NCBI GenBank assembly: GCA_002633005.1 | Contig: NMRA01000437.1 | Location: 154,330 to 218,329, forward strand | Source of the DNA: Phoronis australis | Lineage: Eukaryota; Animalia; Phoronida | Direction of reading: 5' to 3' | DNA: 64,000 nt | In this document: piece after piece, positions 1-32,934 of the stretch | Layout of the letters: each line of letters begins with the position of its first letter | How positions within the stretch are numbered: position 1 is the first letter of the stretch | Made by a program: the position numbers and the translations under genes | Notes under the pieces: model-generated | Seen by the model: the letters and a program-made list of their open reading frames with translations, nothing else | The model's database searches: none | Told to the model about the DNA's origin: nothing

Positions 1-129
1 TTTCTCTTGTTGTGGTGTACGATGTAGCGCACATTTGGACTTAATCGCAATTAATCTGGACTCCACGTGAACTTTAAAAAATGTAAAACATCAGGAAGAT
101 TTCAGATAATTTGTTGAGTCCAAACTATA

Positions 130-922: not shown

Positions 923-1054
923 GTTTGTAACCACCAGTGGGATCTGACAGATACCAATGTCGTCTGCCGGCAGCTGAAGCTAGGTCCAACCAATCAGACG
1001 TTTGCTGCAGGGATCCCACCGGGGAAAGAAACAACTCTGGTGTGGATACAGGCA
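923..1054 (+). CDS. Receptor exon: SRCR domain 1, middle part
   Basis: cag| VCNHQWDLTDTNVVCRQLKLG...VWIQA |gtaagt matches the SRCR motif VCxxxWxxxDxxVVCRQL. Confidence 0.9.
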
Positions 1055-4000
1055 GTAAGTAGGTGCAAGTCGTAAAAAGTCTCTCGGATGATCATTATCC
1101 TCATGGAACAGTGTTGCCTCATTTTTGTGTTCATTAATTAACTGATTTTAATATTATTACTTCGTTTTAGTTGAAATCATCACGGAACGAGTTTTAATGC
1201 AATCACTTGTCTCATCGCAAATGTCCTTTCATTATTGCACTGACATTTGTTTCAAAATTGAGGGCTTGATGTACCTGACTGGTGATGCATCTGAACATTC
1301 GATATCCAATTTGATTTTTGCTAAATGGTTTACAGGTAGCGTGCTCAGGCAATGAAGAAAGACTTACAGAATGTAGTCACTCAGGATTTGGCAATGCTCA
1401 TTGTACACACAACGAAGATGTTGCAATAGCTTGCGGTGGTAAGTGCTTGTCAGTAGACTGTGTCTCTTGAAAACTGCTAGACCCTTGTGTATTTACTCAC
1501 AGTAGTTGAATCCTATGGTAAACGTTATTCACCTTTAGAACTTCGTATGAGGAACAGTGAGTTATCAAAATTTTAAAAAAATAAACCGGAAAATTTAACT
1601 TCTTTTTGACATACTTTATTTTGTGCAGCTGTCATAAAAACACACCTTGAAATTTGAATATTTCTATGTACCTAATATTTATAATTAATGTGGATGCATT
1701 ATGATATCGTCACCTGCTGCTGTATCTCCAAAACCTCTTGGTGGATGTTAGTGAAATTTTTCAGACATGTTTCTATCATGGATGGGACAACAGGAGCAAA
1801 TTTTTGGATGGATTCGACTACTGTTGTAACCTCTAGTGGCAATTTCAGGTTTTTAGGTTAGACTCTGTAGGTTTTGAAGTTCCATTATGACTGATTTTCA
1901 TGAAATTTGGCAGATGGATTCAACATGTTTTGTGCCAACTGGTGGCCGTTTTTATTGTTTTTGAGACTGTCTTTTGGTGTCTAACTCTTAATCGGCCAAA
2001 CCACTCAAAGGATTATTCAGAATTCATGGGACATCTGGACCACTGATGACTATTTTGGAGAGATCTGACTGCTGTCAGAGGGAGTTCTGATTTTTGACTG
2101 GAGTATTTCTAGGAACCTGACAAGTGCATAAGTGACAATGCCATGATACGCTCTTGGGGTATTTTTATTGTCTGTGGTTCAATGTACATTTACTAACTTC
2201 AATAGCATTGCCCTATTTACTGGCAGTGTTTAAAGTAAGAATCATCTATTGTATCCGCACTCTATGCGATGCTCAAGGTGGGCGCATATCAGTGCTTCGC
2301 ATTTGGCTCTTTATAATGCAGTGAGTCTTAGAAAAATGGAAAATTTCAGTTTTGGCTATTATCTTTGATCTGTTGTCATATTATGGAGAGTATGTGGTAC
2401 CTTTGTTGTTATTGCTGAAATGTATTTTAATTCCATTATGTTGTAGTTTACAGACTTTCACGAACTCAGGACTGAAAATTAATATCTCTGATAATAATTA
2501 CAAATTGTTTCTATGCGCAAAAATCATTCTGTCACTTCGAAACTGAAAATCCACGATTTTTGTGAAACTTTCATCACTACAAATTTTAAGTTCTGAATAC
2601 TGAAGAAAAATATTAACTACTTTCACTTGGTCTGTTATTGGTTTTAAAGGCTAGTATGTACACTATGATTTTTGATTTTTTTTTCCAGAGCCTACAACTC
2701 CCAATGACATTCGTCTTGTCAATGGCACGGATTCTAGCAATGGCATCCTTGAAGCGCTTTTCAACGATACATGGTTGCCAGTTTGTAAGCGCGGTTTTGA
2801 TATCAAAATTCTCAATGTCGTCTGCCGTCAGCTGGGCTTCAGGAGGTTTCTCGAATATAATGGTACAACCTTGGACTTGGCGGCTAAAATGATAGGAACA
2901 TACGCTTCGTGTGAAGGTAATACAACTATTTTCTTTTCATGACACTTTTTTCTTGTCAGGAGAGTGGAGAGAAAGTCTTGATTTTTCATGTCTGTGAATT
3001 TCCTTGTTCTAGTAATCCCGTAATGCTCCACATTTTGTCAACTTCCACCATTGCAACTGTGATAGACACACACACACACACACACACNTTGTATCCGCAC
3101 TCTATGCGATGCTCAAGGTGGGCGCATATCAGTGCTTCGCATTTGGCTCTTTATAATGCAGTGAGTCTTAGAAAAATGGAAAATTTCAGTTTTGGCTATT
3201 ATCTTTGATCTGTTGTCATATTATTGAGAGTATGTGGTACCTTTGTTGTTATTGCTGAAATGTATTTTAATTCCATTATGTTGTAGTTTACAGACTTACA
3301 CGAACTCAGGACTGAAAATTAATATCTCTGATAATAATTACAAATTGTTTCTATGCGCAAAAATCATTCTGTCACTTCGAAACTGAAAATCCACGATTTT
3401 TGTGAAACTTTCATCACTACAAATTTTAAGTTCTGAATACTAAAGAAAAATATTAACTACTTTCACTTGGTCTGTTATTGGTTTTAAAGGCTAGTATGTA
3501 CACTGTGATTTTTGATTTTTTTCCAGAGCCTACAACTCCCAATGACATTCGTCTTGTCAATGGCACGGATTCTAGCAATGGCATCCTTGAAGCGCTTTTC
3601 AACGATACATGGTTGCCAGTTTGTAAGCGCGGTTTTGATACCAAAATTCTCAATGTCGTCTGCCGTCAGCTGGGCTTCAGGAGGTTTCTCGAATATAATG
3701 GTACAACACTGGACTTGGCGGCTAAAATGATAGGAACATACGCTTCGTGTGAAGGTAATACAACTGTTTTCCTTTCATGACACTTTTTTCTTGTCAGGAG
3801 AGTGGAGAGAAAGTCTTGATTTTTCATGTCTGTGAATTTCCTTGTTTTAGTAATCCCGTAATGCTCCACATTTTGTCAACTTCCACCATTGCAACTGTGA
3901 TAGACACACACACACACACACACACCTTATTAGACTCGGAGAGTAATATATACCTGAGTGCGTGTGTGTGTGTGTTAGTTGCATTTCTCTAAGTGGCGAT

Positions 4001-7000
4001 AAACCCGCCTTCCGTCACAAAAAACAACTTTTGATTTAGACCACTTAGCACTCAAAAGTTCCTGGAATTTTGTTCACGAGTCGCATTGGATATGTCTCCA
4101 GAGTTTCGAAAAAAATGGAAAGTTTCGAAAAAATAAGCGGCAGCTGATTACTGCTTGAGACCACGCTATTACGTAGCCAAGGTCGTTGAAAATAGATACC
4201 TGTTATGTGCCAAGCATGTTACCAAAAAATAAGTAGCTTTCAGTTCCACGCAAACCCGTAAATCACTTGCCATCTGAGGATAGAACATGCGTAGACAAAT
4301 TTCATAGCGGTAAGTGGTGTGCACGAAATGTTTGTTTTTTGGACGGAGCATTGTGTGTGTGGCTGCTTTAAGTGTGATTTCCGACATTGCAGTAACTGAC
4401 CCTATGCCTGACCCTTGGGTGGTCTGTTCGTCTAAGTACAACCGAGGTGTAGACATTTTCGTCTCACTCCAGGCCTTTCCGGTAGTCGTGATCTACTTAG
4501 TGGCAGACGGCTGGTGTTTTGTAATGTGCCTTTTTTGTAAAATTTGTGGTTTTTCATGGAGATCGTCTTGATATCGAGAGAGTTTTTTCACGAAATTTGC
4601 CAAAAGAAATCTATTTGTTTAGTCAACAACAAAATGTTTGGCCTAGGCCCTTTTAGTGTTTGTCATTAGATTTAACTAAAGGTGTGACAGACAATTGCAG
4701 ATTCATAGTTTGGTAGTTTACAGAATGCAGAATAGGATTTGCCTGCTTTGTGCAAAATGGAGGTGGAAGTTGATGTCAGTGGTCTCTGTGAAAAGTCGTA
4801 TTTTTTCAGAAAAAATGTCACTATTGAGTGGATAACTGTTAACTACGATCATTAATTTTAATGATTTTCAGTTTGATTCATGGATTCAAAGTTGGTATTT
4901 GAAAATTTCAATATTTTAAGGAATATATGATCCTGATTGTTTAAAACGGTTGGCAAATAGCTTTAATTTTGTAATGTTTTACACTCTGTTCATCCCTTCT
5001 AGGTGTGGAGGAGAAGCTAAGCGAGTGTCCTGGACATTCATGGTTTTTTGAAAACGAGTACAATTTTGGTGGCCGGTTCCCCATGCCTAATGAGTGTTAT
5101 CACAACAGAGAGCAGGGAATTGTTTGTACTAACGAGCCAAGTCAACCACCTGCAGCCAGCACCCCGTCGCCTCCTGGCATTTCCGGATGTGAGTAATTGC
5201 CTTGTTAAGAGAACGATCGTTCACTACTATCGCCAATTTCATAAGATATACAAAAATTATGCTTCAAGGATTGAAGGATCGTGGCATGCTAGTGACCTCA
5301 GGAAAGTATGGTGATGTCAATTCAATGCTTTTTTACATAAAATAAGTGGTTAATTTTTACATAAAAAATATGGAGAATGTTGTTTGAAATTTTCTATTCT
5401 ATGTCGTCAGCATTGAAGATAAAATGCTTGGTAAAATAACAAAACAGCACTGAAAAAGTCTGCAAGTATGACACATTTTGCACGTTTTGTCTATCTCTCG
5501 TCCTTTAACTTCCCTGTATTAATACACATCCTATCGAGAAATCATTTCATCTGGGAAGGTCAAGTTGGGACATTCTCGGGTGAAATGAATTTGAGGAATG
5601 CTGCTAGCAGATGAGTGTGTCAATAAAAAACTCGTACTCCCATTTTAGGTCACAATTTCCTGTAAATGTCTTAGCACTCATTGTAGATAATTATAATGTA
5701 TGCATACTGATTTTGACTGATTGTGTTACCCAGGATGCTGTTTAATTTGACCTATTTATGATGACCTATATTGAAACTAGCGAGGCATAAAAATAGCTGT
5801 TTAATCACACTGTTTTTAGAGCAGTAAAACTGTCATTTCATGAACGACGCTTTGCATCAGTGTTTTAGGTAACCCAAATGATTGATCCCAATCAAATTTG
5901 GCATTGTACGTCCCGCAAATTTACTCCACCAGGGAGACTGCATACCAATAAAGAAATACGGCTTCAACCATTGTAAAAGGCCTGTACCGTGGGGTACGGA
6001 TTGGGTCTACTTTCCCGTATTTCATAGTTAATAACGTGACGTATACAGTATCAGTATATCCATGTATATGGGATAAAGTTTAATATTATGCAGTACTTTC
6101 CAATAGTGTATGAAAAAATTTTCACACTTTTTAGGGAGGGAGTTAAAAAAAAGTATGCTTTGTATGCTTCGCAATCCCTTGCTTATCACATTGATCAAGT
6201 CGTCTTTACGTGACCAACTTTGATACTTCATGTCTTAGAAGCAACTGGTTGGATTCATATGACATTTTAGTTCATTATACTATCATGGTGAACTCTTCTC
6301 CAAAACATGTTTGGGAATTGTTTTTAAGATGTTCCACTTTTGCATAAGAGGATATGATAATGAAATTGTGCATAACATGACATTGTAATCAACTTGGAAA
6401 ACTGCAACTGTACAGCTTTTTCACACGGAATTTGATCAAGACATGTTATTGATAATATTGTTGTAAAAATCAACTTCTACAGGCTTTCAGAAAATATGTC
6501 CTCAAGTTCCTACATAACATTTAATATAAGTTATTATCATTAACTTCTTCCGGGATATTCCGTACTAGATAAACCCATGGTCGCGTATTAGTAAAATACA
6601 AATTTTCAGGCATTTCGGTTACTCCAAATAAACACCCTGGCGTTCATTCAGAAGAGGATGGCGTGTAAACGAAAAGTCAAATATCAGGGATTTTTTTTGC
6701 AGTCTATAATGTTATTGTTTTTTTTAAGTTTAGGTTGGACTCAATAAATACACAGTTTGCCCACATTTAGTTCATTCTGAGTGGGCTTTTTAGAGGAAAT
6801 TTCCGAATTAACGCCCATGTTCGTTTCATTGGGTGGGCTTATCTGTGGAAAATCTCGGTATGAAGTATTTGTTCAATGAAACTTTACTATAAGTGACATA
6901 GGTGATGACACGTCTTGGTGTTTGATGTCTATAGTTTGCTGGTTCCTTTGTCTAGATATAATCTTTTGGGCATTTTCAAATTAAACTACATAATACTAGT

Positions 7001-10000
7001 GTACGAGTGCTCAAACTGTTGATTATAGTACGCATCTATATCACATATGTTTTTGTATTGTTTGCAGATTGCCGGCCATATAACAGTCATAAAACCTACA
7101 GCGGCACAGCTGAAGTTGGGTCTATCTATTCTCCAAAACATCCTGATACTTATGATTTTGACCTGATTTGTACATGGAGAGTGACAGCCTCCCATTCTCA
7201 GTCTACCATTAAAGTGGTCATTGATGGTAAGATGTTAGAATCAATGAAATAAGATGGAGATACAATGAAGTTATTTCTTTTTTCAGCTAGGCTTTGTTGG
7301 ATATTTATATCCCGCGATTGCTTTCAAACAAGATCCATTTCAGGTTGGGTATTGTGCCTCCTATCATGGAGTACAGCTGAGAGATACAGCCATCCACAAC
7401 ACAATCTTGGAAGCCCCAACTCGTGAAAATGCCATTTAAAAAAGTGAAATTTTACTGAAATTGTAACTGCCAGGGCTTGGAATTTTCTGCGGAAATGCGG
7501 ATTTCCGCTTTTTCAAATGTTCTGTCCGCGTATTTTATAATATTTCGAATTTGATATAAAATTTCCGCGGCAAATTCCTTTCTTACCGCGGCATTGCAGA
7601 CGACGTTCACCTCGAAAAGCGGAAGTTGCTCTTTATGTTTCGGAGGAACGTAAATTGTCAACATTGCCGGGGCATCTGGGATAGCGTGGTGGGATTTTCA
7701 TTGGCGTCTCGTGTTATTGTAAACCGCGGCAACAAATACTACGGCTCTGCAGCCAAAAATGTGTGGCTTGGGAGTGGACGGACGAGCTAAAAGGACGTAG
7801 ACACATGCTACTGATGGTGGTAACGTTTTTTTTTTTGTTTTAGTCCTCCCGATTTTTGTCGGAAAGGTTCACATCGACCATTTCAAGGCTGGGTAGCGCG
7901 CATGATTTGGGCCGTAAAAGTTTCAAAGTTTCCGCGTTTTTTGTCCTTGGTCATTCCAAGCCCTGAACTGCGTCCATAGATAAGGCCAGGTGCGGTGCTA
8001 TATCACTTGTCTTTTAATGAACAGATGTAGACTTACTAATTGCAGTAGTTTTCAAAATAAACTCCACAGCTTCGAAACGTAACAGGGTTTCTAAACCCAA
8101 AACCACGACAATATATCCACATTTTTTTACTACAATTTATTTCAGTTCCTGCAAATCCTCTGCAAAATCTTGTCAGGTACGGCTCTATGCAATTTGTTGC
8201 AACAGCTTACCTCGTAAGTCCAGGTGCAATTTTCGGCATTAAACTCCGACTAAAGTTTGACAGAAATTCAATTTTACTGTGACAAAGCAAATCCTATGCT
8301 GATACCCTCACGGGTCGAGTTTAGGCAACTTGACCAGTTCGCTCACCTTAAAATCCTCTGTTGCCTTCAAAGAAACCATCCAGCTTCAACTGATGGTTAT
8401 CCTTATCAGGAGGTTAGCTTAGATAGTCGGGCGCGAACTTGCCCAACATGGTTTTAAACTTTGGGGGTTGACAAATTTCAATTCTGAAAGTTTTTAAATG
8501 GTGAAAAGTAAAATCACGAAACGTATGTTACTTTGACTGGTGAATACATAATATTGGAAAGTTCTTCATATACACTCAATGTGTTAATAATAATAAAATA
8601 ATAATAAACTTTATTTATAGAGGATAAAATACAATAAATATAAAACATGCTTTAGCCAAAGGCTAATATCCAGCATGGTCTTCTGCAGCAAGAAATTGAA
8701 TTAATTAAATTAAGATACGCAATTAGATTAAATTAAGATAGATAAATAGATTAAATTAAGACAGATAAATAGATTAAATTAAGATAGATAAATAGATTAA
8801 ATTAAGATACATTAAATTAAACAGTAGATACAAATTGGATTTACAGATTGAATTAAAGATAAATATTATTAAATAAAAAAAAAATTTTATGGAATATACG
8901 TTTATGCGTGCTAGTTTTAGCGGCTTACACCACAGCTTTTGTCAAACTAATGATGTTGTGATTGGTTTGGACATGTGATGTCATCGTTATAGGCTGTGGG
9001 GACATCTATTGGGTGTCTGGTCTGCTGTGCTCTACAGTGCCGTAGCTATCTGGCAAGGCATGCTCACCCATGTCTCTATTCACGTAGGAGGCACCTTGTT
9101 TTTTAATGTGATATGCCTCCCAGATCCATCTTGTTCTTCTACTGTAGTTGTGTGACAGGATTTTACAATTGTGATTGAACTGTGTATGGGCTTTTAAATT
9201 TTGAAAATCTGGCAGAAAATGAGACTTTTAGTAACTGAAGCTAGAAAGTTGTCTACAACCACTCTTCTGCCTCTGTCATTTATTCTGCAAGGCATGCAAT
9301 ATAATGGCCCAGTTTGTAAGGGTCACAGATTGATAGAATCCAAATGCCAAATTTCAATGCTGGACAACTGGATGTAACGATTTCTTGTCTTTCGCTATGA
9401 GGTTTTAAAGACGAAATACCGTTTCTAATAACTGAACAATGCATCACTCCAATTTAGGTTCAACTTCATTACAATTTCATTTGTTTCATCTGTGTTGATT
9501 TCATTCCAGCGTTTTCCACAGAAGAGTACAGAGACAAGCTGGAGGTGTTTGATGGCTGGTCTGAGCATCACCCCAAGATAGCTAGCTGGTCTGGTGAAAT
9601 ATCAGGTATGTGTTCATTTTACAAGAACAAGTCTATCCTCACAGGGTATGCGCCCATGGATAATTTTAACCACAGGTGCTCATGAGAGCGATTCACTTAA
9701 TCTATCTCTATGTAGTTTACCAAGAACAGATGAATCACTTCTGGCCCAGACTTACCACCCATACAGTCACTGCACCATTGACAGAATAATTCTCAGTTAA
9801 AGTTGAGTATTTTATTTTGTAAAATATCTTAACATGACATTCAAGAAGATGTTTATTCCTTTCTATATAACACAACAAGAGACCCAAGAATTAGGTGGCT
9901 TCAGTTCAGACTCTTGACGAGAATTTTGACTACTAACTCTTTTTTAAAAATAATTCTAGTTACGGATGACGACTCTTGTTCATTTTGTAGACAATCGAAA

Positions 10001-22000: not shown

Positions 22001-25000
22001 TACGTCACAGAGCGTAAATATGATTAATCTTAACTTCCGATTTCACCCGTTTAGGAGACCGGGTTTCAACAGCCATGGGTTACAATAATCGCCTCCATGA
22101 CACCAATTTTTTCTAAGCGCCCTGGGCGGTTATTAGGGTGAATACGGTATCCTAAATTTTAGTTCACTCATTCAATGAAAACTTAATAAGTGTATTTTGA
22201 AAACTTGACTTCTTGCCTATGAACTTAAATAACTTTTTGCCCAAAAACCTATTTTTGTATGGGAGTTCTAGTACTGTCATGAAAATTTCTGCCTATGGAA
22301 ATACTTTAGGCATAATCTAAATGGGTTTTGATGTGATAAGGCTTCTTGACGCTCTCTAACCATTCTACAATCTTAGGTGCAAATATGGAATCAAGGAAAA
22401 TTGATATTAATGATAATGTTAGTGGTAGTATACTATAATAGCTCACTGAGTCAAAAATTTCAAAAATAAAGAAAAATTTCAATCATTAAAATTAGCACAT
22501 GATTACCTACAGGCTTGCTTGAAATTTTGACTAATGTAGCCTCACTTCATAATAATAATAAAACCGGATAATGATGCGTAAAATGACTATCAATTGCCTT
22601 CAGCCTCTGTTAGTACTAAACTGCCTTCTACTGTTCCTACAGGTACTTCTCAATACCCAGCTGATACTTCTACTGCTGCAGAAACCGATAGTGGTGAGTG
22701 TTTTGCCTGCTAGTACCATACAGTGCTGCTCTGCCTAGAATACAAACTTAGTACACGGAAGGTAATTCATTTAAAACATGCATATTCCAGGGCACCTTGT
22801 ATTTCGTGTTGAAACAGGCACATGTGGATTGCACAAAAACAGCTTCAGTCCATGGCATACTGTGAATGCTAGTAGGTTCCTTTTGGTGAAGCTGAGCAAT
22901 GACTTCTGTGGTACTAAACTGTGTGTGCTGTTGGATAAAAGATTTCTGGGAACTTGTAATAGACCAAGTCGATATCTCATTTTGAAACCTGCTCTTTTTC
23001 TCTCTCTAACTCTCTAGTTGAGACTAAATGTGAGATGTTTGTAATATCCTAGAGCTTGTGAAGTTGCAGTAAGTTTTGATCAAAAGTGTTTTGATCGTCG
23101 GTGATTTGTCACATAATTGTAAGCACTTTCCAGTCTCTTTCAAAATCAAGTTGTTGATAAAACAACTTTTAATTGAACAGTTTCAGGTTTTGCTTGCAAT
23201 TTTTGTCTCAATAAGTGGATAAAATTTAAGTCATCTCTTGGTAAGGCAGAGAATTTCCAAATTCATGTATCAATCTAGTTCATTGCTACGTGTTATTGCA
23301 GTCTTCGTCCCAGCATTGTGTCTAGCTCTTCAATTATGCACCTTGGCGATTCAGATAATTGAAACCCAGTGGAAATGCGTATTGATGATGAAGCAGTATT
23401 TCTCTCAAACATGTATTGTTGTGAATAAACACCCAAGATAGCTTGAAGTTGGAAGTGTCATGATGACAAAGCATCTTGTTTCATATTAATTCATCCACTT
23501 CAACTTACTGGAATTGTTATGAGTGTTAACGATGACGTTGACATTTGACTATTGCGAGGTTTTTCTACAGGTGGAGCCACAAGCACCATTATACCTCCTG
23601 ATGGTGGAGGTGTTACTACTACCTTTGGAGCTACTACTGTACAAGGAACTGGTAAGTTCGCATTATGAGTGCGTCTCAATTAAGGTAATTTGTTTGTGCG
23701 CACCCCGGATCACACACAGAGCTGGGTGCAGGCACCTCATTATCTGTGGTTCATTAGATGCCCACAGTCGGAAAGCCAAAAGGTCCTTTCATATTAACTT
23801 AACTTGAAGCCTGGATGTGATGGAGGAAGTTAAGTGAACCGTTCATACCAGCTTCAGTAGATAACAGCGTGGAAGTAAACAGTGGGTGACGCTGTCATCA
23901 TTGAAGTAATCGTAAGGTAGCGCATCCCGTGCGTGCAAAGATTTTTACAATGTGACGATTTGAGAACATTTACACGTGCTACTTGACATATAACTTATTT
24001 ACTCGAACAAAATGCAAGCAACTATTGGCGATGACACCCCACTTTTATTGTTGACGATAGTTAAGTGGCCCCTGGTGATAACTTCCATGAGATTGAAGTT
24101 TACTGTTCATACCACACTGCAGCGTTGACGCTTCGCTGTTAAATCCACCTGTTCACTGTGAAGTTAACTGGTGCGGTTAGCATCAATCCATAACCGAAAT
24201 TAACTGTTCAAACTGAACACAACTCCCCAAAACATCGACGCTTCAGCATTAGTATGAATAGGCTTTATGAATGCCTGTTGCTGGTTGGTATAACAAGATT
24301 TGTTACTGACTGCAACCCCCAAAACATTGGCACATCGATGTCAGTATGAAAGAGTCTTTAGGATGTGATCAGCTCAACAGTCAGAGTAATTGGTATCTGG
24401 TAAGATGGACACCACTTTCTGTTAGAGGTAGAGTTTGGTGACAGGACAGTCAACAGAATACGCACACTTGATTGAGGATGTGTAGTTATATACTAGGCAC
24501 ACATTGCCCTAGTGCATGAGTCTAGATCGTTCTATACGAGTCATCTGACGTTTTTGAAGAACTTGTGACTGATGGTGTTGGTCTTGAAGCAAACAAGCAA
24601 GAAACTGTACTACCCTGGGTGTCACATGTGTGATAAATTGCATTATTTATGAAGTTCAACTATGTATTTTGTGGAGGTTCAAAATTATACTGAAAAGGAA
24701 TTAAAAACAATTATTTTGACTATTTACTGAACTTTTAATTTGGATTATTTATTGGTATAACACTGATTTTAAGTTGTTCCTTAGTCAGATCAAAAGTGAT
24801 TTCTGACCCTTATCACAGCTTGAAGGTTCTTGGTCCATAAACTGTCCTGCCAGGTCAATTGATCCCAATTAACAGCAATATCACATTCCAAGTCAAGAAA
24901 TCATGCATCTAGTGCCGAGTAACGGCAAATGGTCTAACTTGAAACTATTTTTGAGAGTGAAAAGTGCATTAATAGCGGTATTGAGGCTTTTTGTTGAAAC

Positions 25001-28000
25001 GAAGGATGTTGTGATGTTTGTTGTGAAAATTATGACTTGAAAGAAGCAAGTCGTTAGTGCTACAGGAGCAGTAAGGTGTCTTTTGCTTGACCCAATTTCT
25101 AATTCTGTTGTTCGTGATGGGTTGAGTTGACAGGGACGAAACGCAATTTCTTTCATTCATGGACATTTCGTGACATTGGTCATTTTGTGTGTGAATTGTT
25201 AAATCATTGTTATTGGCACATGCTCGTTATTGTTGTTGGTAACTGAATAATAATTATATGAACTGTGGTCAAGTTTATGTCTGCTGCAAGGCAATGTTCT
25301 CACGGAGCATGCAGCTTTGTGCTCACAACGTTTTACATTGTGAACATGGCAGTTTTTTATACATTTGACAGGAAACGTGCCATATCTTTACACATATTAC
25401 ATTCTGCCAGATGGCAGATTTTCTACGCGAATTACAAGCTTTTTACACGAATGACACATTTTTGCCATGTTTGAGATGCTTTAAGCTTTAAATGTAGTAC
25501 GTGTGAAATTCTCACCTGGGAGTTTTGCAGCCATTTTTGCCAAGACCGTGCCTAGGACTTTGATTAAACGGGCACCAGAGGGTGTGGTATGTGTTAGTAT
25601 TAGCTGTTAGTGTTAACTGTATATTGTTGGTTACACTGTAGTTGGAGAATAGTGCAATCTGCTGCTGCTGAAGTGAGTATCAAAAACAGGTGTGGGATCG
25701 CAATAGCAGCACTGTCAGATGTGATGTGTGATGAGTTACAAAGTACTTAAATTTATTATTTGCAGGTGGCAACGAGTCTGGTCAATCCGTTGGAGTTATT
25801 GTTGGTGTCCTCGTTGGCGTTGTTGTATTAGTTGTAGTTGTGGTGATTATCGTGTATGTCATCAAACGACGCCCGTGTCCCACGTTTAAGAGGTAAATTA
25901 GTTAATCATTCTTCTAGAACATCTTAAATGTACTTGCCTCAATGTACCATTCACAGGTCAGTCCCTAGTTAGGGAATCTCCAAGGTTGAATGGCATAAGG
26001 ATGCTGTTTTTAGGGTTGGCAAAAAGATTTTGCCTCGGAAATTGGGCCCCCTCAGAACATGCTAGATCTGCCAGTGGTAAGAAAGATGGTACACAGCTGA
26101 AGGTTTGAGTATTCTTGCTTCAGTACCACAAGTATGACAGACTTTAATTAGTACTCCTCAATCTCATTACGTTGATTGTTCTGTCTTATCACTGGATTTT
26201 AACCTGTGTGGTGTTGTAAGCAAAATGACCGTGAAGCAATCTTAGGGTACTCGTGTAGGGACTTTAAACTGGACACGCTGTTATCATTGATTTGAGCGGG
26301 CTCGTCCTTCAAGAGAGCAAAAATTGAAAACAAACATTTCAGTTAATTTGGGAACTCGTAATGTGTGACAGCCTGAACATTGCATGTCTTCTGCAAAACA
26401 AAGACTTGCAATTTGCTAAGGAATTTTGATCATCCCACGTAGGTGAGTTATCTATTCAGGATGGTCGGTCATGACGAAATTGCGTGTAATGCTCAAGTTG
26501 AACTGGAACCCTAACGTATCATCATGTAAAATTTTGGAATATCACATCTCAGAAATGGCTGATCATATACTTTATGAAAAAATTCAGATTCCAGGCTTTT
26601 ATGCATTATTCCCCATAATTCTTTTAGGAATAATTGTTTTTAAAGTGTTCTCCTTTTGCTTGATGGACTATCAAAAAAGGACTTACATGATTTCTTTGAA
26701 AAGCTCAAAAACTGTACAAAACCAAAAATAATGAAATGATGATTTCAAAAACTGTAGTGTTTTTTTAGATTTCATCTTGAATTCTTATATTTAATGAAAT
26801 TTTGTCATGTTGTTGATACCATTGTTTTGCTATGGGTGTTCCATTCTTTTTAGTGAATTTTTCTAAAACGATATAGTCGTGAGACCCATTCAGTATTAAG
26901 TCAAAAATCAAATAATTTCTAAATGCTTTCTATTCTTTGTAGACATATGGCTTAATACACTGACTAGTCTATAAGGTCCCACGTTGTATTAACAAAGTGC
27001 CGTTGCTTTATGAGAGAAGAATGAACACAATTGTGCTTCAAGCAATCCAATGTAATTTTTCTTGTCGTGGAGTTAAAATCATTCCATAGTTTTGTAAGTT
27101 TTGCTAAATACATAAGCTAGTCAATAAGGTCTTACATAAGTAACTTTTTCTATGAGGGAAAAATGAACATAATTTTGTTTCAAACCATTTAATGTAATTG
27201 TTCGTCTGAGTAGCTTAATATGATTCTGTTACTTAAATGAAAGCAGCTTCCTTGCATTCAATAAGGAAAGCGTTTCGAACTGCTTGGGGGGATTGGGCTT
27301 GAACGAGGGGCTTGTGGAAAGCGCTTTCATTTTTGGTGACCATTTGTCAAGCTGCATCGTCAACAAAACCAAAATGGAAAGCAGACTGTTCATAAGCGAC
27401 GTCCAATAATTTGAAGCGTTCGCAGGAAAGCGCTTTCATTTTTGGAGAGTGTTTCTCAATCTGCATCACCAACAAAACCAAGATGGAAAGCAGGTCGTTC
27501 ATTAGTGATGTCCAACAATTCGAAGCGCTTTCCTTATTGAATGCAAAGCTGTTTTTTGTAAAGTTTTAAACTATTTTGCCAATTTAGGACGGATTCATGA
27601 TGCCATGAAAATGCCAGTGTTGCTTCATTTCCTATTAATTTGTTCCCTAGCAACCGTGGATCACCTTATGCTAGATCGGGAAGCAAGAACAGTCCTTCAA
27701 GGGTACACTATGAAGCTGGTGCAGACGACGTTGGCTACTCCAATGGATATGTGAGTTCCATTATGCACTACATCTCATTTTGCAGCCGGCAAAATGGAAT
27801 ACTTCTTAGTTGTTAGGATTTGAATAGCTAGATACTGCAGCACTTAGATGGAATTTCTGTCCGACATCTTTTCTTTTGCATTAAGTTGTTGTCTTTGCAA
27901 ATTATACCCCTTGGTTTTTAATTGGTATTCCCCTGTCTTGCCGGATAAGGGAACAATTGAAGTGGATGCCAGTGACAGCATTGCCTAAATTACATTCAGT

Positions 28001-31000
28001 GAAGGATGTTCTTGATGCTGCATGCCATAAAAACTCTGAATTCAACATTAAAAGTTGAGTCTGCAGAGATTGATTGGTTTTATGGTAAGTCAAACCACCG
28101 TAGAGCTCTGTAGAAAGGACAGTGCTGGAGAAGCAGTTATTTTTTAGGTAATTCGGAGTTCAGTGCTAGAAAAACTACTGAAGGATGATGTTTCCACTGC
28201 TTTGTGGACGATTCACAATCAGAAAAACATATCGCAAAAACATCCCATGTGTTCCAATGGCTTCATGGGCCCAGACTGAAGTTTTGAGGGGTTTCACACA
28301 ATGCAAGGCTTGGCCTCAATTGATGTGTGGTGATTTTATTTTAAAAAAATGAATTAAAATCGGTACTGCTGGAGATTGATTTCAACTGCATAGTGATAAA
28401 CTGTCAGGGGAGATATGAGAGGTGTGGTGGCAGTGAGGAGACAGGAACAGTCAGACTTGCACAGCCAATGACACGACAGCCATTTTTGCTATTGGCATAA
28501 GCGCTAGTGAAAGGCTGGCACATTAAGTCACCATGGAAACGCGGTGTTAAGGGGGGGCGTTAAAGACAACTTCTGTCAAAGAAATTAACTGGGGATTTAG
28601 ACTAGTTACGGGTATAAAATTGGAATTGACTTGTTCCTCACTCTGAAGAGAAAAGATTTTTGTTCTTGCAAAAAGTGACAGTTCATTATTTCTGGAGACA
28701 TTGCGCAGCAAATAAAGTGAAACGCCATGACAGGTCAACTTACAGACTGTTCTGTAAGAGCAAACCACCAGTTCTTTCCAAGTCCAGAATTCACATCTAT
28801 TTTGACCGAGGAACATTTTGAGATGTATTTAACAGCAAGTAGGCTTAAGTCAAATTTTTTTGAAGGAAAGCGAGTTTACTGTCGTTTTACTTGAGAAGAG
28901 TTCTGACTACCATTCTGGGTTTACCGAGATACTTAATAAAAATTAGGCGCTTTGTAATATAAATGTGTTATCATGTTGGATGTATTAATAAAATGTTTTT
29001 CCTGGGAGCTATTGGTTGTTTTTCATATTCTAAGTGTGTCAGAGTTTTTTAAAAGGCACAAAAGTTAGGTAGAATATCTCAGTTGACTCTGATGTTAGAG
29101 AAGCCGTGGGTCTGTTCCCTGAAAAGCGACCAAGCCGTGGGTCTGTTCCCTGAAAAGCGACCAAGCCGTGGGTCTGTTCCCTGAAAAGCGACCAAGACTT
29201 GAGACAGAAAATTGTTCTTATCCTCCCAATTCATTATTAGCGCATCATTGCTGGAAATGATTTTTACAAATTTTTTAGCGAGTAGCAGTTATGTTTATGT
29301 TCTCGGATACTTTGTTGTTTTGATAAATTGAATTAATAATTACTTTTCAGAAATAGTTGTGGGCAACTTAAGAACGAATTTCTGTCTTATATCATAGATC
29401 ACTTTTCATGAGGTATACCCCTGCACTGGATTTTTTCAGACTCTAGGTTAATTGACTCTCTGCAAGCTTCACATTCTCTTCACTTTCAACTCGTGCATCT
29501 TTAGCTGAAGTCTACACATAGTAAACAATTTTCCTTTGTTTTATTGCAGTATCATAACCCAGATCTTTTGGTGAATAGTAACTTGGTGGATCGGCAACCA
29601 TTTGGAAGTGTCACCAACAGAGCTTTTGATCCAAACGAAACATTAGGTAGGATAACTCTTCAGTTATTTGGCTTAAAAACAATTTTCAGTTTGTATTTTT
29701 AAGGCAAGAGTGCCACAGTGATAGTTCTTCATGTGGTGTTTGCTGACCATTGTACAGTGCACACTATCTATTGTTGCTATTGAGATAATTTTTCTTTTAT
29801 CTTTGTTGAGTATTGAAATTTTAAGTGACTAAGTAAATCATCAATGTTTGTAAAAGATGATAGCTTAATCCATTGCAATCGACTCGTTCACATTTTGTTC
29901 TTGGACGGGATAAACTAGTCTGCATAGTAGATTAGAATTTTGCAGACCCTTGTAAATCTTGGGTGTTATTCACACACACACAACAGGAGTTTTGAAAGTG
30001 GCTTGCAAGGTCAGTGAAAGTAGTTCTTTGTGAACCCTTCTCTGAGTGGAGAACTCTGTCCCAGTTTGACTGCGTAACTAAACAAGGCTTAGCAGAAGGT
30101 TTATAGTCCTGGCCCGAGAAGATAATTGTTTTACTACCCCCTTTGTATAGCTGAATAGCTAAGCCCAGAACGTTATTTGAAGTCCTGTGGGAACAATTTT
30201 CAATATTTTGTTTGAAGTCTGTTGTAATCTTTTTTGACTTAAAAAAATTGGGGATTCATTCTAACGTTTGACTTTGAAATGTTTTCATTATGTGCCAGTG
30301 TTAGAGCTTACCTGGAAGGATTACGCTGTGTGAGAAGTGTGTTTTGCATGTGAAATGATCACAAGTAATTTCTGGCTTAACTGGCCCCAGAAGAAAGATT
30401 TCACAGGAAATTAGGGTAGTAAGGGGTATCGAAATAGTTTCTTTCATTGCACCCAGATATTCTTATGTGGGTGTTCTTTGCTGCACTGTGTTTAAACTAA
30501 CTTATTAATTTTTGTAGATGCTGATGTGAGAGAATTCTTGGAAAGATTGGGCTTTGAGCAATTTGTTCCTGTATTCCAACGGGAACTGATCACAAGTAAC
30601 ACTCTGGCTAAACTGACCCTAGAAGATCTCACAGGAACTTTAGGTAGGGGAGTAAGGGTCAGCGACGGTAACACTGTCTGAACTAGGCCATTGCTGGCAC
30701 CGAAGGTAGCCATCACGTAATGGTGCCATAAGGTTTTGTTCCCGAAGCACCACCCTTTTGTTGAGAGATAACTACATAAACCTAACCCTTTTGTTACTAA
30801 GATAATTCGATATTTTAAGTCCATTAAACATGAAAAAAGGCAAGAGAGGGGTCATGTCAAAAATGAGACAACATGTTTTACAACCAAAGTTTCTGACCCT
30901 TTTGTGTGTAGTTGGAAATGGAACATGTTGTAGAGTTTAACCAACTCCCAAAGTGAACCCTTTTTTAAAGAAATTAATTAAAGCTGAATGGCTCCTTTTT

Positions 31001-32087
31001 TGGTAACTTTGTCTGAAAAGGCACCCTTTCATATGTAAACTGGTCATGAAAAATCAACCTTCTGATTATGCAATGAGTTCCATATACCTCTTCTGTTGGA
31101 TTGCCCACAGCTATTAAATTGATAATTGTTACCATGTCTGTGTATTCGTTTTTATCATTATCCTCAAAATTGTACTCTCCACCTCAGTGTGTTGTGTTTA
31201 ATTCAAAATGCACATCTTTGTCCATGCCAGGTATACCACTTGGTCCAAGCAAGCGTATGATGGAAAAGATAGCTGACATGGCTCCTTATGAAGAGGCCGA
31301 GTTTCACAGAACGAACCAGGGAGACTACACTCGACTTCGTGATCCAGCGTACCAGCAGCTGGACAGGTCACGAACTGGCCAACAAGGGGTGTATTCATCC
31401 ATACAGCCGCCATTGTACCAGAAGCTGTCGAAACCTGGAGACACTGCGAGGGCTGAGTACTCTACCCTGGACCAGCATGTGTATCAGAAAACAGACAGAC
31501 AGAAGAAACACGGTTCACACTATCAATCCTTGAACTATGGAGAATATTACGCCGATGGTAGTAGCACCATTGGCCATAGCACTGGTGAGACAGAAACTGG
31601 AAGACTACCAGGAGAGGTGTATTTGGATGTCCCGCTCTATATGGAGACCGATCTCCATGACGCACATTCAAAGGGCGCCTACACGGAGGTGGGAAGTTTA
31701 TATTCATCTGTTGCTGAGCCACGTAATCACTCCAAGGATGATCCCATGAGACAGGGGAGCACTGTAAGTTTGATTTCACAATCCAGTGTTGCCTCTAGTG
31801 TCACCGCTGGTATACCAACAGAACCGCCTATCTATTTCCATTGTCCAATCACAAATGAGATCATGCAGGACCCAGTAAGGGCAAGTGATGGACGTACATA
31901 CGAGCGGTCGTCAATTATGCGTTGGTTGAGTACGCACTCAACATCTCCGGTCTCCAAGCGACCCATGACGGATAAGTCCCTGGAGAGCTGTGTGGAGCTG
32001 AAACGACAAATCAATGAATGGAGGAAACAGAGGTCAAAGATGAAGCTAGGCCGACCTTCGACCCCTATCACTGGCATTGATTGTTAA
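923..32087 (+). CDS. Multi-exon type I membrane receptor: SRCR-SRCR-CUB-mucin stalk-TM-SAM-Tyr-motif array-U-box (5' end not found in window)
   Basis: Exons 923-1054, 1336-1438, 2689-2916 (or copy 3527-3754), 5003-5188, 7068-7226, 9510-9605, 10646-10747, 12007-12048, 14390-14638, 15283-15525, 22604-22693, 23571-23651, 25766-25892, 27651-27750, 29550-29646, 30518-30643, 31231-32087. All introns are GT..AG with matching phases. The exons sum to 3018 nt (1005 aa + stop) with no internal stop, and domain motifs continue across junctions. No signal-peptide or first-SRCR-half exon was found in 1-922. Confidence 0.85.
1336..1438 (+). CDS. Receptor exon: SRCR domain 1, C-terminal part
   Basis: tacag| VACSGNEERLTECSHSGFGNAHCTHNEDVAIACG |gtaagt is the classic CxGxExxLxxC...CxHxEDxxxxC pattern. 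Six Cys in total indicates group A SRCR. Confidence 0.92.
1660..2310 (+). mobile_element. Degenerate copy of the Helentron-like non-autonomous element family seen at 33691-34888
   Basis: Shares ctgtatctcc.aaacc and ctagtggcaattt motifs and the 3' end gtgggcgcat..tca..gct.cgc.tt..ctctt. Confidence 0.55.
2689..2916 (+). CDS. Receptor exon: SRCR domain 2 N-terminal half (copy 1)
   Basis: ttccag| EPTTPNDIRLVNGTDSSNGILEALFNDTWLPVCKRGFDIKILNVVCRQLGF...ASCE |gtaata; 228 nt, phase 1-1. Confidence 0.8.
3527..3754 (+). CDS. Receptor exon: SRCR domain 2 N-terminal half (copy 2, possibly the allelic haplotype)
   Basis: Near-identical to 2689-2916 (I/T change in GFD[I/T]K plus silent changes), with intact splice sites. 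Confidence 0.7.
5003..5188 (+). CDS. Receptor exon: SRCR domain 2 C-terminal half plus Pro-rich linker
   Basis: ttctag| GVEEKLSECPGHSWFFENEYNFGGRFPMPNECYHNREQGIVC TNEPSQPPAASTPSPPGISG |gtgagt. Confidence 0.88.
7068..7226 (+). CDS. Receptor exon: CUB domain part 1
   Basis: ttgcag| YCRPY...GSIYSPKHPDTYDFDLICTWRV...IKVVID |gtaaga matches the CUB motif GxIxSPxxPxxY...CxWxI. Confidence 0.88.
7471..7965. mobile_element. Non-autonomous DNA transposon (hAT-like MITE)
   Basis: 13-bp perfect TIR CAGGGCTTGGAAT / ATTCCAAGCCCTG flanked by a 6-bp direct repeat AACTGC (7465-7470, 7966-7971). Confidence 0.8.
8700..8822. repeat. AT-rich minisatellite, 23-bp unit ATTAAATTAAGATAGATAAATAG
   Basis: About five partly degenerate tandem copies. 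Confidence 0.85.
8905..9170 (-). mobile_element. Penelope-like element 3' fragment (GIY-YIG C-terminus)
   Basis: Minus-strand translation HNYSRRTRWIWEAYHIKKQGASYVNRDMGEHALPDSY matches the R...EA..I......NRD.G...L...Y tail of Penelope endonucleases. Confidence 0.7.
9510..9605 (+). CDS. Receptor exon: CUB domain part 2
   Basis: ttccag| AFSTEEYRDKLEVFDGWSEHHPKIASWSGEIS |gtatgt matches the CUB pattern FxxE..DxLxxxDG...G. Not in the supplied ORF track. Confidence 0.85.
9820..10490 (+). mobile_element. L1/Tx1-type LINE 3' fragment (C-terminal zinc-finger region), frameshifted
   Basis: RILTTNSFL...DDDSCSFCRQSKETLIHLFLECETVNSFW (CxxC...ET..HLF..C...FW), followed by (GT)n and an AATAAA/A-rich tail. 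Confidence 0.75.
10646..10747 (+). CDS. Receptor exon: CUB domain part 3
   Basis: ttccag| AGTTVTTNSSSCFFKFVSDHALSRSGFKLSYTSS |gtgagt matches the CUB C-terminal FxSD...GFxxxY. Confidence 0.88.
11010..11505 (+). repeat. Intronic repeat homologous to ~18180-18715
   Basis: Colinear similarity, e.g. ctttgttaactgcc.agcaca.tcttttgtc, catttgactagga.ttcagaaatgct.ttggtttatgttcaaat and cttcccaacttgttgttgggctatag. Confidence 0.8.
12007..12048 (+). CDS. Receptor micro-exon, Ser/Thr stalk
   Basis: tttcag| GVVTTQGPPSTHTS |gtaagt; 42 nt, phase 1-1. Confidence 0.7.
12845..13862. mobile_element. Foldback/MITE-like element with ~350-bp imperfect inverted arms
   Basis: ~12845-13230 is the reverse complement of ~13515-13862, e.g. 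aactgaccaagagacatgattaaaaggtaca versus tgtaccttttaatcatgtctcttggtcagtt. Confidence 0.8.
14390..14638 (+). CDS. Receptor exon: mucin-like stalk repeat A
   Basis: catag| TTLQDSSSHPPSSTSTVAPVPTAIKTTSGSPETSTSPS...VFTTE |gtaatt; 249 nt, phase 1-1. Confidence 0.75.
15283..15525 (+). CDS. Receptor exon: mucin-like stalk repeat B
   Basis: catag| VATRETSSHPPSSTSTVAPVPTTLKITSDSPETPTAPG...DFTTE |gtaact; 243 nt, phase 1-1, paralog of repeat A. Confidence 0.78.
16205..16568 (+). pseudogene. Mucin-like stalk repeat C, frameshifted pseudo-exon (or sequence error) with internal 63-bp repeats
   Basis: Same splice contexts as repeats A and B (catag| ... GAAG|gtaact) but 364 nt (3n+1). One extra base near 16245-16250 gives TAG at ~16267. 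After correction it reads IVAPVPSTLKTAFGTPETSASTVAPVTTVLQTASGTPETFAS...FFTSE. Confidence 0.7.
17820..18031 (+). repeat. Minisatellite of ~15 bp (AGACCTCGAAAACRC)n reading as poly-RPRKH
   Basis: More than ten degenerate units visible, preceded by an in-frame acceptor (aatag|GT CTT CCC AGT) at 17801/17802. Confidence 0.8.
19190..19620 (-). mobile_element. Penelope-like element fragment (linker + GIY-YIG), decayed
   Basis: Minus-strand pieces LAIPYIG..SEQLRRTY, DTTPAGKQDGVI and HLRLKEHYETGLTSAVNEHMIVSGHSISMENENIIG occur in the expected order. Confidence 0.7.
21830..22150 (+). repeat. Dispersed repeat, copy 2 (homologous to ~130-440)
   Basis: Same shared blocks in the same order as 130-440. Confidence 0.7.
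22604..22693 (+). CDS. Receptor exon: Ser/Thr stalk
   Basis: ttcag| ASVSTKLPSTVPTGTSQYPADTSTAAETDS |gtgagt; 90 nt, phase 1-1. Confidence 0.75.
23571..23651 (+). CDS. Receptor exon: Gly/Thr stalk
   Basis: ctacag| GGATSTIIPPDGGGVTTTFGATTVQGT |gtaagt; 81 nt, phase 1-1. Confidence 0.78.
25766..25892 (+). CDS. Receptor exon: transmembrane helix and stop-transfer
   Basis: ttgcag| GGNESGQSVGVIVGVLVGVVVLVVVVVIIVYVI KRRPCPTFK |gtaaat; ~25 hydrophobic residues followed by a basic cluster. Confidence 0.92.
27244..27551. mobile_element. MITE with ~35-bp TIRs and an internal ~108-bp direct repeat
   Basis: ttgcattcaataaggaaagcgtttcgaa ... ttcgaagcgctttccttattgaatgcaa, with the internal ggaaagcgctttcatttttgg...caacaaaacca..atggaaagcag present twice. 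Confidence 0.75.
27651..27750 (+). CDS. Receptor exon: juxtamembrane cytoplasmic segment
   Basis: ccctag| SNRGSPYARSGSKNSPSRVHYEAGADDVGYSNGY |gtgagt; phase 2 to 0 fits both neighbours. Confidence 0.8.
29101..29196 (+). repeat. Perfect 31-bp tandem repeat x3 (AAGCCGTGGGTCTGTTCCCTGAAAAGCGACC)
   Basis: Three identical adjacent copies with no spacers. Confidence 0.95.
29550..29646 (+). CDS. Receptor exon: cytoplasmic segment
   Basis: ttgcag| YHNPDLLVNSNLVDRQPFGSVTNRAFDPNETL |gtagga; phase 0 to 1 fits both neighbours. Confidence 0.78.
30518..30643 (+). CDS. Receptor exon: SAM (sterile alpha motif) domain, N-terminal part
   Basis: ttgtag| DADVREFLERLGFEQFVPVFQRELITSNTLAKLTLEDLTGTL |gtaggg continues as GIPLGPSKRMMEKI in the next exon. 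Matches the SAM consensus V..FL..LG...(Y/F)...F....I....L..LT.EDL..LGI.LG...(K/R). Confidence 0.88.
31231..32087 (+). CDS. Receptor terminal exon: SAM end, Tyr-motif array, U-box E3 ligase domain
   Basis: gccag| GIPLGPSKRM... The U-box PPIYFHCPITNEIMQDPVRASDGRTYERSSIMRWLSTHSTSPVSKRPM...LKRQINEW lies at ~31824-32030. Stop TAA at 32085-32087. Confidence 0.92.
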
Positions 32088-32928
32088 GGATTGGATCTAT
32101 ATCATTTTGTACTTTTGCATTGAAATGAAGCTTTTTAGCCTCAAGTGGAGAGCTTTTAAATGGAGACTGCACCAATCCTAATTGTGTCAAAATGTATTTT
32201 GCGGAACAATCATTCCAGCTGATATTCAAGTATTCTTATAAATACTCAAGGTTTTTCACTTTGTTGTATTTCAGTGAAACAATGCCTATTGGTGTAAGAG
32301 CTTGTATTTACATATACATAACTTTTGTATAGTGTGTTATTTTTCGTTTATGATTTATCTATTTCGGAGAGTTTATATTATACTTATAGATCGTTGAGAA
32401 GGTGTTTAAACATGGTCCAGAATTGTTTGGGAGACAGTGTATCATTTGTTGCAGACTGTCATTATCAATTCCATAGGAATCGATTTCATGAGCTCCAGTG
32501 GTTTCGTTTTTTGACATCGCCATTCTGAATGAATGCAGTTTTAAGTAAAATAAATCAAAATATCTGTCAGTGTGTTGTTTCAACGTTCATCGGAACATGC
32601 CCCACTTCATTGCTTTCAACCCTTTGACTCAAGTGAGTCAAACTCAAGTGAGTCAAATGCTGTTTTTATCAGATAAATACTTATATGCTGTACTGATAAA
32701 CGTATGTCTCTGTAATTGATTTTTAGTCAAAATTGTTGTAACCCTTCGTGCCATATGTTAACAGTTGTCGAATGACTACTGGTCGCACAGTGTTGATAAC
32801 ACATATAACCATATATATTTTTATTTTTATTTGTATTCAGATACATGTATTGTTCTTATTTGGAATTCATATCCATATTTTGGTATCAGATAATGTATAT
32901 TCATGTTTCTCTTGGATTGTTGTTGTTG

Positions 32929-32934
32929 AATAAA
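32929..32934 (+). promoter_or_regulatory. Candidate polyadenylation signal of the receptor gene
   Basis: AATAAA followed by T/GT-rich sequence ~840 nt after the stop. An alternative AATAAA lies near 32549. Confidence 0.4.

Follow-up and report, generated by a model that had tools for sequence, protein, structure and literature searches.

A window of 64,000 nucleotides from the phoronid Phoronis australis contains a gene predicted to encode an SRCR/CUB receptor with a single membrane pass, the tail of which carries a SAM domain, a U-box and an array of tyrosine motifs. This is a real gene, with expression and alternative splicing. Because tyrosine motifs and U-box are found in the same tail, the receptor likely works with its own ubiquitin ligase, and we give about even credence to its being a receptor-type ubiquitin ligase whose targets are the proteins recruited by its tail. 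Invertebrates have many SRCR receptors, the signalling of which is for the most part poorly understood. Docking tyrosines and ligase in one transcript-supported chain would permit a direct and cheap test of receptor signalling and of its switch-off.

Gene structure and transcripts

The 17 exons are all flanked by GT-AG splice sites, agree in phase and join into one open frame with its stop at 32085-32087 (Table 1). The initial annotation had given these exons a frame of 1005 aa; the exons, phases and single frame stand, and the length is corrected to 992 aa, 13 residues fewer. Based on RNA reads from four runs of two studies, 14 of the 16 joints of this long form are among the RNA joints listed, and the other two (12048>14390 and 14638>15283) are absent among them; the listings leave out a further 10 and 16 rows. 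A 16-exon short-stalk form, made by the joint 12048>15481, encodes 843 aa from the window edge in the order SRCR-SRCR-CUB-stalk-TM-SAM-tyrosine array-U-box, and all 15 of its joints were seen in RNA. The chain of RNA joints runs from SRCR1 to the U-box exon, which supports the earlier claim that the TM, SAM and U-box exons lie on the same mRNA as the SRCR exons. The frame begins in the middle of an SRCR domain, so the 5' part of the gene and the N-terminus lie outside the window; no fitting exon was found upstream in positions 1-922.

The joints bridging the ectodomain and membrane exons have few reads, namely 6 and 11 at 12048>15481, and 3 and 14 at 15525>22643. In X4, this amounts to 11 versus 49 and 14 versus 58 reads at the neighbouring joints, and the bridge joints are absent among those listed for X3. 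No single RNA read or contig reaches across the whole gene; two RNA contigs of X1, one of 972 and one of 1677 bases, overlap by 30 bases at 15481-15510, as calculated from the piece lengths. Mismatches to the RNA contigs are fewer in the coding pieces (21 in 2082 bases) than in the non-coding pieces (53 in 1675 bases).

A copy of exon 2689-2916 lies at 3527-3754, on the other side of the N at 3088. The copied stretch is likely an allelic overlap of the assembly and adds no third SRCR domain; a third SRCR was rejected because an X1 contig crosses one copy only and the copy-to-copy joint is absent among the joints listed. Also rejected were a coding role for the repeat frame at 17800-18030, to which no joint is listed, and the full exon 16205-16568, which has a stop in frame.

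Table 1. Features of the receptor gene (positions in the window)
Feature	Position	Strand	Evidence
First exon in window, middle of SRCR1	923..1054	+	Pfam SRCR E 4e-6; joint 1054>1336 in 4/4 runs
Exon, SRCR1 end	1336..1438	+	Pfam SRCR E 9e-8; RNA joints
Exon, SRCR2 first part	2689..2916	+	Pfam SRCR E 5e-10; joints 1438>2689 and 2916>5003 in 3/4 runs
Second copy of 2249-3087	3089..3927	+	827/839 columns identical; contains exon copy 3527-3754; adjoins N at 3088
Exon, SRCR2 end and Pro/Ser linker	5003..5188	+	Three Cys in SRCR spacing; joint 5188>7068 in 4/4 runs
CUB exon 1	7068..7226	+	Pfam CUB E 3e-4; joint in 4/4 runs
CUB exon 2	9510..9605	+	No profile match alone; joints on both sides in 4/4 runs
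CUB exon 3	10646..10747	+	Pfam CUB E 2e-3; cubilin match; RNA joints
Short stalk exon	12007..12048	+	Joints 10747>12007 in 4/4 runs, 12048>15481 in 3/4
Mucin-like stalk exon, repeat 1	14390..14638	+	Predicted: phase 1-1, open; joint to it absent among joints listed
Mucin-like stalk exon, repeat 2	15283..15525	+	Joint 12048>15481; joint 15525>22643 in 3/4 runs; contig 15322-15510
Optional mucin-like stalk exon, repeat 3	16263..16568	+	Joint from 15525 in 2 and 6 reads, of a shorter allele
Stalk exon	22643..22693	+	Joint 22693>23571 in 4/4 runs
Stalk exon	23571..23651	+	Joint 23651>25766 in 4/4 runs
Transmembrane exon with basic stop-transfer residues	25766..25892	+	One hydropathy peak; joints in 4/4 runs
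Juxtamembrane cytoplasmic exon	27651..27750	+	4 Tyr, one YxN; joints in 4/4 runs
Cytoplasmic exon upstream of SAM	29550..29646	+	One YxN; RNA joints
SAM, first two thirds	30518..30643	+	Pfam SAM_2 positions 8-45 of 66, E 3e-6; joint 30643>31231 in 4/4 runs
Last coding exon, with SAM end, tyrosine linker, U-box and stop	31231..32087	+	Depth ~20, 21 and 85 in X2-X4 over 31428-32091
Three 22-residue units, a pair of tyrosine motifs each	31320..31517	+	Best lag 22; 0/2000 shuffles reach it
U-box	31827..32036	+	Pfam E 7e-19, 68 bits vs cut-off 21.4; model pLDDT 92
3' untranslated region	32088..33400	+	Stranded read depth to the end of the stretch covered; AATAAA at 32549 and 32929

Ectodomain

Pfam profiles were run on single exons (16 pieces scanned). 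The SRCR profile matched three of the four SRCR exons, and the fourth (5003..5188) matched weakly the end of the Mac-2BP SRCR (E 0.15). Group A SRCR domains are defined by six Cys (according to the available text of PMC10855680); six are found in SRCR2 and in the visible part of SRCR1, the start of which is outside the window, and the earlier assignment of two group A domains is upheld to this extent. Two of the three CUB exons matched the CUB profile, both slightly below the curated cut-off. In the stalk, an inner acceptor at 15481 reduces exon 15283..15525 to a 45-base in-frame piece, and the outer acceptor (16205) of the optional repeat-3 exon does not keep the frame in the present assembly.

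SRCR repeats with CUB are common to DMBT1/SALSA and the phoronid gene, but DMBT1 has ZP and no signalling tail, whereas the phoronid gene has a stalk and TM after CUB and no ZP. At the place of the DMBT1 cation pair (two Asp after the first core Cys), SRCR1 has Asn-His and SRCR2 has Lys-Arg. Since both visible SRCR domains are without this acidic pair, DMBT1-type microbe binding cannot be assumed, and the parallel with DMBT1 that had been drawn for recognition is weakened.

Membrane segment, SAM and tyrosine array

The protein has a single hydrophobic peak (Kyte-Doolittle 3.7; next best 0.95). The SAM domain is interrupted by a phase-1 intron; the part beyond its first two thirds likely opens the last exon, and the SAM of this gene gave no match among the 158 proteins with which it was compared. 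Nine of the 15 linker tyrosines lie in YxxL/I/V, against a shuffle mean of 2.0, and nine were reached in none of 20000 shuffles, although the motifs are not independent, six of them falling within the 22-residue repeat or directly behind it; the many YxxL/I motifs described initially are thus a non-random array. Between the 22-residue units the motifs are kept, with a DNA identity of just 41-42%. The motifs are spaced by 4 and 10 residues, and include two ITAM-like pairs at a relaxed spacing of 6-12 (the canonical ITAM spacing is 6-8) and two ITIM-like matches. The tail contains 19 Lys. Folded from its sequence alone, the last exon gave an uninformative model (pLDDT 37).

U-box

The C-terminal U-box that had been claimed looks intact: it keeps all five invariant and all six near-invariant profile residues in an 18-row alignment, and Foldseek matched its model to the U-boxes of E4B (TM 0.83, rmsd 1.3), CHIP and plant PUB proteins. 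Its conserved Ile, Trp and Pro are E2-facing residues. Three residues after the loop Pro, at what we take to be the linchpin position, it has Lys and no Arg. Plant PUB U-boxes solved with E2 have Gln there, and Arg is thus not needed in all U-boxes. In RNF38, changing the linchpin Arg to Lys lowers the affinity for E2~Ub 12-fold (available text of PMC12326332); because the linchpin is Lys, the predicted ligase activity of the phoronid U-box may be modest.

Homologues and related systems

The homologue searches gave no orthologue for testing conservation and nothing closer than generic U-boxes; they returned one of 1229 candidates and one of six, both the same multi-U-box protein. A wider search gave 12476 representatives at E 0.001 and none at 1e-30. 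The best 150 of these mostly have at least two U-boxes, and none of the 150 has the SRCR motif; among the 52 of them that were scanned, none has SRCR or CUB and three are SAM-U-box proteins without WD40. These blanks are weak because 297 further matches at E 1e-10 or better lie beyond those listed. A metagenome search gave one of 78 stretches, an unrelated U-box gene, and an atlas search gave U-box clusters at below 0.9 and no match for the linker.

We found in the literature no characterised receptor of the SRCR/CUB-TM-SAM-U-box build and no functional study of one, in agreement with the initial annotation. The SRCR-CUB-TM-U-box architecture itself, however, has been catalogued before in two Acropora species: a 2016 supplement lists the models aug_v2a.03894.t2 of A. 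digitifera and c000424 of A. millepora (PMC5119243, file 2), for which the listed domain order is that of the phoronid gene. Domains such as MAM, LDL-A or WSC are also present in the coral models. They are gene models without function, given one clause in the available text (PMC5119243), where SAM, stalk and tyrosine array are not named. Neither was among the best 150 of our 12476 matches.

WDSUB1 and WDSUB1-like proteins share with the phoronid gene a SAM followed by a C-terminal U-box, and SAM-U-box proteins without WD40 exist in sponges and Monosiga (PMC3087547). WDSUB1 is soluble, with a WD40 front end and without the 180-residue tyrosine linker, whereas the phoronid protein has a TM and an ectodomain, and no WD40 was found by Pfam in the 16 pieces scanned. 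The 2010 survey recognized seven animal U-box families and a few lineage-specific genes, found no WDSUB1 or WDSUB1-like proteins in lophotrochozoans, and does not contain the word transmembrane (PMC3087547).

CD5 and CD6 are single-pass SRCR receptors whose tyrosine-bearing tail takes part in ubiquitylation, as is predicted for the phoronid protein, but they have no CUB, SAM or U-box and the ligase (CBL/CBLB) is a separate protein. Their SRCR domains belong to group B. CD5 acts as a scaffold for CBL-mediated ubiquitylation (available text of PMC4965873).

In the layout of extracellular domain, single membrane pass and cytoplasmic RING-class ligase, RNF43/ZNRF3, MEGF8-MOSMO-MGRN1 and ATRN-MGRN1 resemble the phoronid protein, but they have a RING and not a U-box, near the membrane on a helix, and no SAM or tyrosine array, as far as the available text of PMC12458338 describes them. 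In the phoronid protein ~315 residues, among them a low-complexity linker, separate the U-box from the membrane, and the membrane E3 reminiscent of RNF43/ZNRF3 that had been proposed fits less well for this reason. RNF43/ZNRF3 are PA-TM-RING proteins; in place of the PA domain and membrane-near RING, the phoronid protein has SRCR/CUB and a distant U-box.

Proposed mechanism and alternatives

In the preferred reading, a multivalent ligand would bind the ectodomain, with splicing setting the stalk length, and the tails would be clustered through SAM contacts. Self-association of the LRSAM1 ligase is driven by SAM together with coiled coils (available text of PMC8567218). The YxxL/I pairs would be phosphorylated by a Src-type kinase and SH2 proteins would dock on the phosphotyrosines, whereupon the U-box on its flexible linker would bring E2~ubiquitin to the SH2 partners and to the tail lysines. 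Ubiquitination would drive uptake and end the signal, one chain doing the job of the two chains of CD5 and CBL.

Alternatively, the tyrosine motifs could serve unphosphorylated as sorting signals of an endocytic, down-regulating receptor, the U-box ubiquitinating cargo or a neighbouring receptor bound by the ectodomain, as in RNF43/ZNRF3 and MEGF8-MGRN1. We consider this unlikely. YxxL/I/V is also an AP-2 sorting signal, the ectodomain is of the scavenger type, and receptor-type ligases acting on surface receptors are established (PMC12458338, available text). However, in these known ligases a single helix fixes the depth of the RING (PMC12458338), nine motifs in a regular array would exceed the needs of sorting, and no NPxY or dileucine signal was found in the tail.

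Rather less credible is an activating receptor, in which K63 chains, made by the U-box together with UBE2N/V, serve as an NF-kB/MAPK platform, as with Act1/TRAF6 in cis. Structures of the CHIP U-box and the TRAF6 RING with Ubc13 are among the Foldseek matches, although the choice of E2 is not readable from fold matches; the tail has two P-x-E-x-x-acidic matches, presumably of the TRAF6 type, but motifs of this length often arise by chance; and the nearest solved matches of the SAM include TIR-1/SARM1 and tankyrase, all weak (E 0.03-0.6). No TIR or SEFIR domain was recognized by Pfam.

A U-box with little or no ligase activity, retained for dimerisation or binding in a plain tyrosine-motif receptor, seems improbable. 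The Lys linchpin, given the RNF38 effect, and the Ser-Cys in place of the usual Pro-Asn before the last helix are consistent with it, but all core residues are kept, the plant U-boxes solved with E2 carry Gln at the linchpin, and P0078 and P0119 have Ser-Cys as well. It is highly improbable that the locus holds two neighbouring genes, one for a secreted SRCR-CUB mucin and another for a membrane SAM/U-box protein, or that the chain is an artefact of assembly. The low read counts at the bridge joints and the allelic overlap would fit such a reading, but these joints have canonical ends, keep the frame and were seen in three of four runs from two studies, contigs meet across them, all stalk exons are of phase 1-1, and the coral models share the order (PMC5119243, file 2).

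As for wider meaning, the phoronid gene and the coral models may belong to one ancient family of single-chain receptor-type U-box ligases, in which an active E3 would share one chain with a phosphotyrosine array clustered by SAM, a family that predates the cnidarian-bilaterian split, falls outside the seven families of the 2010 survey and is absent from vertebrates; we propose this only tentatively. If true, no earlier U-box ligase of animals would be known to be a surface receptor in its own right, and the protein would offer a one-protein model of the SRCR-receptor-plus-CBL circuit. The phoronid receptor would also extend the few known receptor-type E3 ligases by a U-box type.

Neighbouring gene

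A homologue search for the neighbouring neuropeptide gene gave none of 7992. This gene matches a published sequence of Phoronis australis, which marks the DNA as phoronid, in keeping with the invertebrate host named at the outset.

Gene structure and transcripts

The receptor gene is real and supported by transcripts, and its build is unusual. Reading of bases 1–36000 with exon boundaries snapped to GT-AG gave 17 exons in a single open frame of 992 residues; the initial annotation had the same 17-exon frame, but its length of 1005 residues exceeds our count by 13. Addition of one optional exon extends the frame to 1094 residues. The frame opens midway through an SRCR domain, and bases 1–922 contain no exon that would fit ahead of it; the start of the protein, with its signal peptide and whatever other domains it has, therefore lies upstream of the window. 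Pfam, applied to 16 single-exon pieces, recognized SRCR, CUB (weakly, in two of the pieces), SAM and U-box in this order, and the hydropathy profile contained one membrane segment, in agreement with the order and the single transmembrane (TM) segment first annotated. The RNA goes through only one copy of the direct duplication near the start of the gene (827 of 839 columns alike); the duplication is thus likely an allelic overlap, in which two alleles were assembled side by side, and a third SRCR from the copy at 3089–3927 is unlikely.

Four RNA runs, one providing contigs and three providing read counts, were mapped on positions 13500–33400 and 1–16700. Exon reads were stranded as expected for plus-strand RNA, and 14 of the 16 joints (donor end>acceptor start) of the 17-exon model were among those listed from the four runs, 12048>14390 and 14638>15283 being absent from this listing. 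The joint 12048>15481, at the inner acceptor of a stalk exon, was found in a contig and, among the joints listed, in 6, 0 and 11 reads of the other runs, as was 15525>22643 (a contig; 3, 0 and 14 reads). A 16-exon form with both joints encodes 843 residues from the window edge, and all 15 of its joints were seen. By piece lengths, a 972-base ectodomain contig ending at 15510 overlaps by 30 bases a 1677-base contig that starts at 15481 and covers the membrane-to-U-box part; one more contig, which comes from the long stalk exon, likewise ends at 15510. The membrane, SAM and U-box exons were joined in all four runs (33, 27 and 85 reads for 30643>31231). The RNA supports one transcript that carries these exons and the SRCR exons, as initially annotated. 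The stalk is of variable length, 82 residues at the shortest and at least 231 at the longest.

In the contig pieces, 21 of 2082 mostly coding bases disagreed with the window, as against 53 of 1675 in non-coding sequence (p = 3e-6). The comparison took in 12 of 16 listed pieces, one of those counted as coding including about 190 bases of UTR. Two pieces at 113–676 and two stalk-exon pieces were left out; the latter (5/189 and 5/159 mismatches) are as variable as introns.

Ectodomain

SRCR2 has six cysteines and belongs to group A. In the SRCR domains of DMBT1, two Asp residues hold ligand-bridging cations (PMC7043408). SRCR1 has Asn-His in place of this pair and SRCR2 has Lys-Arg, which makes binding in the manner of DMBT1 unlikely for the two visible domains; any upstream of the window may differ. 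The CUB domain is without a second disulfide and keeps acidic residues at places that we take to be those of calcium-binding CUB domains (partly seen in an alignment with cubilin). As a guess, it is a putative ligand site. An immune role, as initially proposed, would be conjecture.

Cytoplasmic tail

The U-box keeps all invariant and near-invariant profile residues in an 18-row alignment, and its structure model (pLDDT 92) matches E4B (TM 0.83), OsCIE1, CHIP and others. The linker of 183 residues between SAM and U-box contains 15 tyrosines, nine of them in YxxL/I/V (shuffle mean 2.0; nine reached in 0 of 20000 shuffles), which bears out the many YxxL/I motifs of the initial annotation. Three 22-residue units keep paired tyrosines (lag score reached by 0 of 2000 shuffles) though their DNA is only 41–42% identical, which suggests that the motifs are held by selection. 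Their spacings, 4 and 10 residues, differ from that of canonical ITAMs. The SAM match covers profile positions 8–45 of 66 in one exon; the domain's end likely opens the last coding exon, and SAM, tyrosine array and U-box would then be tied into one unit.

Precedents and relatives

In the full-text literature, outside which most subscription papers lie, we found no paper uniting U-box, SRCR, transmembrane and SAM domains, and none of the matches listed for Phoronis dealt with the gene. The supplement of PMC5119243, however, lists two Acropora models that share SRCR, CUB and a C-terminal U-box with the phoronid receptor (compared by listed domains), one with a TM segment ahead of the U-box. The core build was thus catalogued in 2016, without discussion there. 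The initial annotation knew of no characterised animal receptor with this architecture; the core has the coral precedent, and no functional study of an SRCR-CUB-TM-SAM-U-box receptor was found in the searched literature. The gene is a variant within SRCR receptors and receptor-type E3 ligases. Excerpts of PMC3087547, which surveyed the U-box ligases of animals in 2010, give seven families with no receptor named, SAM-U-box proteins without WD40 in sponges and Monosiga, and no WDSUB1 in lophotrochozoans. PMC10855680 deals with the SRCR genes of P. australis, and its domain tables may be relevant to how new the build is. Nothing bearing on the gene came from PMC13228809, PMC8514136 and PMC6188537. 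No relatives were found among the best 150 of 447 matches at E 1e-10, in searches that are weak for animal genes. P0047, an unnamed protein of 983 residues retrieved with the U-box, carries two U-boxes at its C terminus together with repeats, a cadherin-like domain and a segment resembling a membrane pass, and is another membrane U-box build.

Possible mode of action

Beyond the anatomy, we infer every step. With roughly even chances, the receptor would cluster, its array would be phosphorylated and dock SH2 proteins, and the tethered U-box would ubiquitinate these and the receptor itself, ending the signal. CD5 serves as a scaffold for CBL in a two-chain model (PMC4965873), whereas the phoronid receptor would act in one chain; LRSAM1 is a precedent for SAM-aided self-association of a ligase (PMC8567218). 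The likeness to RNF43/ZNRF3 initially proposed, or a MEGF8-MGRN1 mode, is unlikely. It fits less well since a helix keeps those ligases at a fixed depth (PMC12458338), whereas the present U-box stands about 315 residues from the membrane. That the U-box builds a K63 platform is somewhat less probable again. The linchpin residue, at a position presumably mapped correctly, is Lys; plant U-boxes have Gln at this place. In RNF38, the change from Arg to Lys cuts E2~Ub affinity 12-fold (PMC12326332). A weak or dead ligase is improbable. That the locus is two genes, as the read numbers of the joints bridging ectodomain and membrane exons, lower than those of neighbouring joints, and the absence among the four runs of a molecule spanning the gene would allow, is very improbable.

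Other features of the window

Features of the window
Position	Strand	Feature
923–32087	+	Receptor gene
2249–3927		839-base direct duplication (2249–3087, 3089–3927) around a single N
35559, 39570, 63842		Three more single Ns
7242–8355, 10584–11697, 18148–18811	both	Transcribed dispersed repeats in introns; high read depth, many loose ends
14390–16568	+	Three related mucin exons, near-identical flanks, inner acceptors in two; one allele with one repeat fewer; in the second exon, 3 of 3 checked variants change a residue
16263–16568	+	Optional exon
17800–18030		Low-complexity tandem repeat in intron; two open frames, no splice joint among those listed
9833–10186, 13287–13454, 38794–40375, 59382–59837, 61435–62147		Presumed LINE reverse transcriptase/GIY-YIG retroelement look-alike fragments
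48272–49003	+	C-type lectin (Pfam E 1e-8); signal-like start, coiled-coil stretch
about 51330–51475		Probable second C-type lectin exon with domain end
53308–52727	-	Allatostatin-A-type neuropeptide precursor; repeated amidated peptides

By eye, the allatostatin frame agrees over 180 residues with the P. australis allatostatin-A precursor in the supplement of PMC8557429 and differs from the P. ijimai entry there, which places the window in a phoronid, a spiralian bilaterian. The first codons of the allatostatin frame are likely in an upstream exon.
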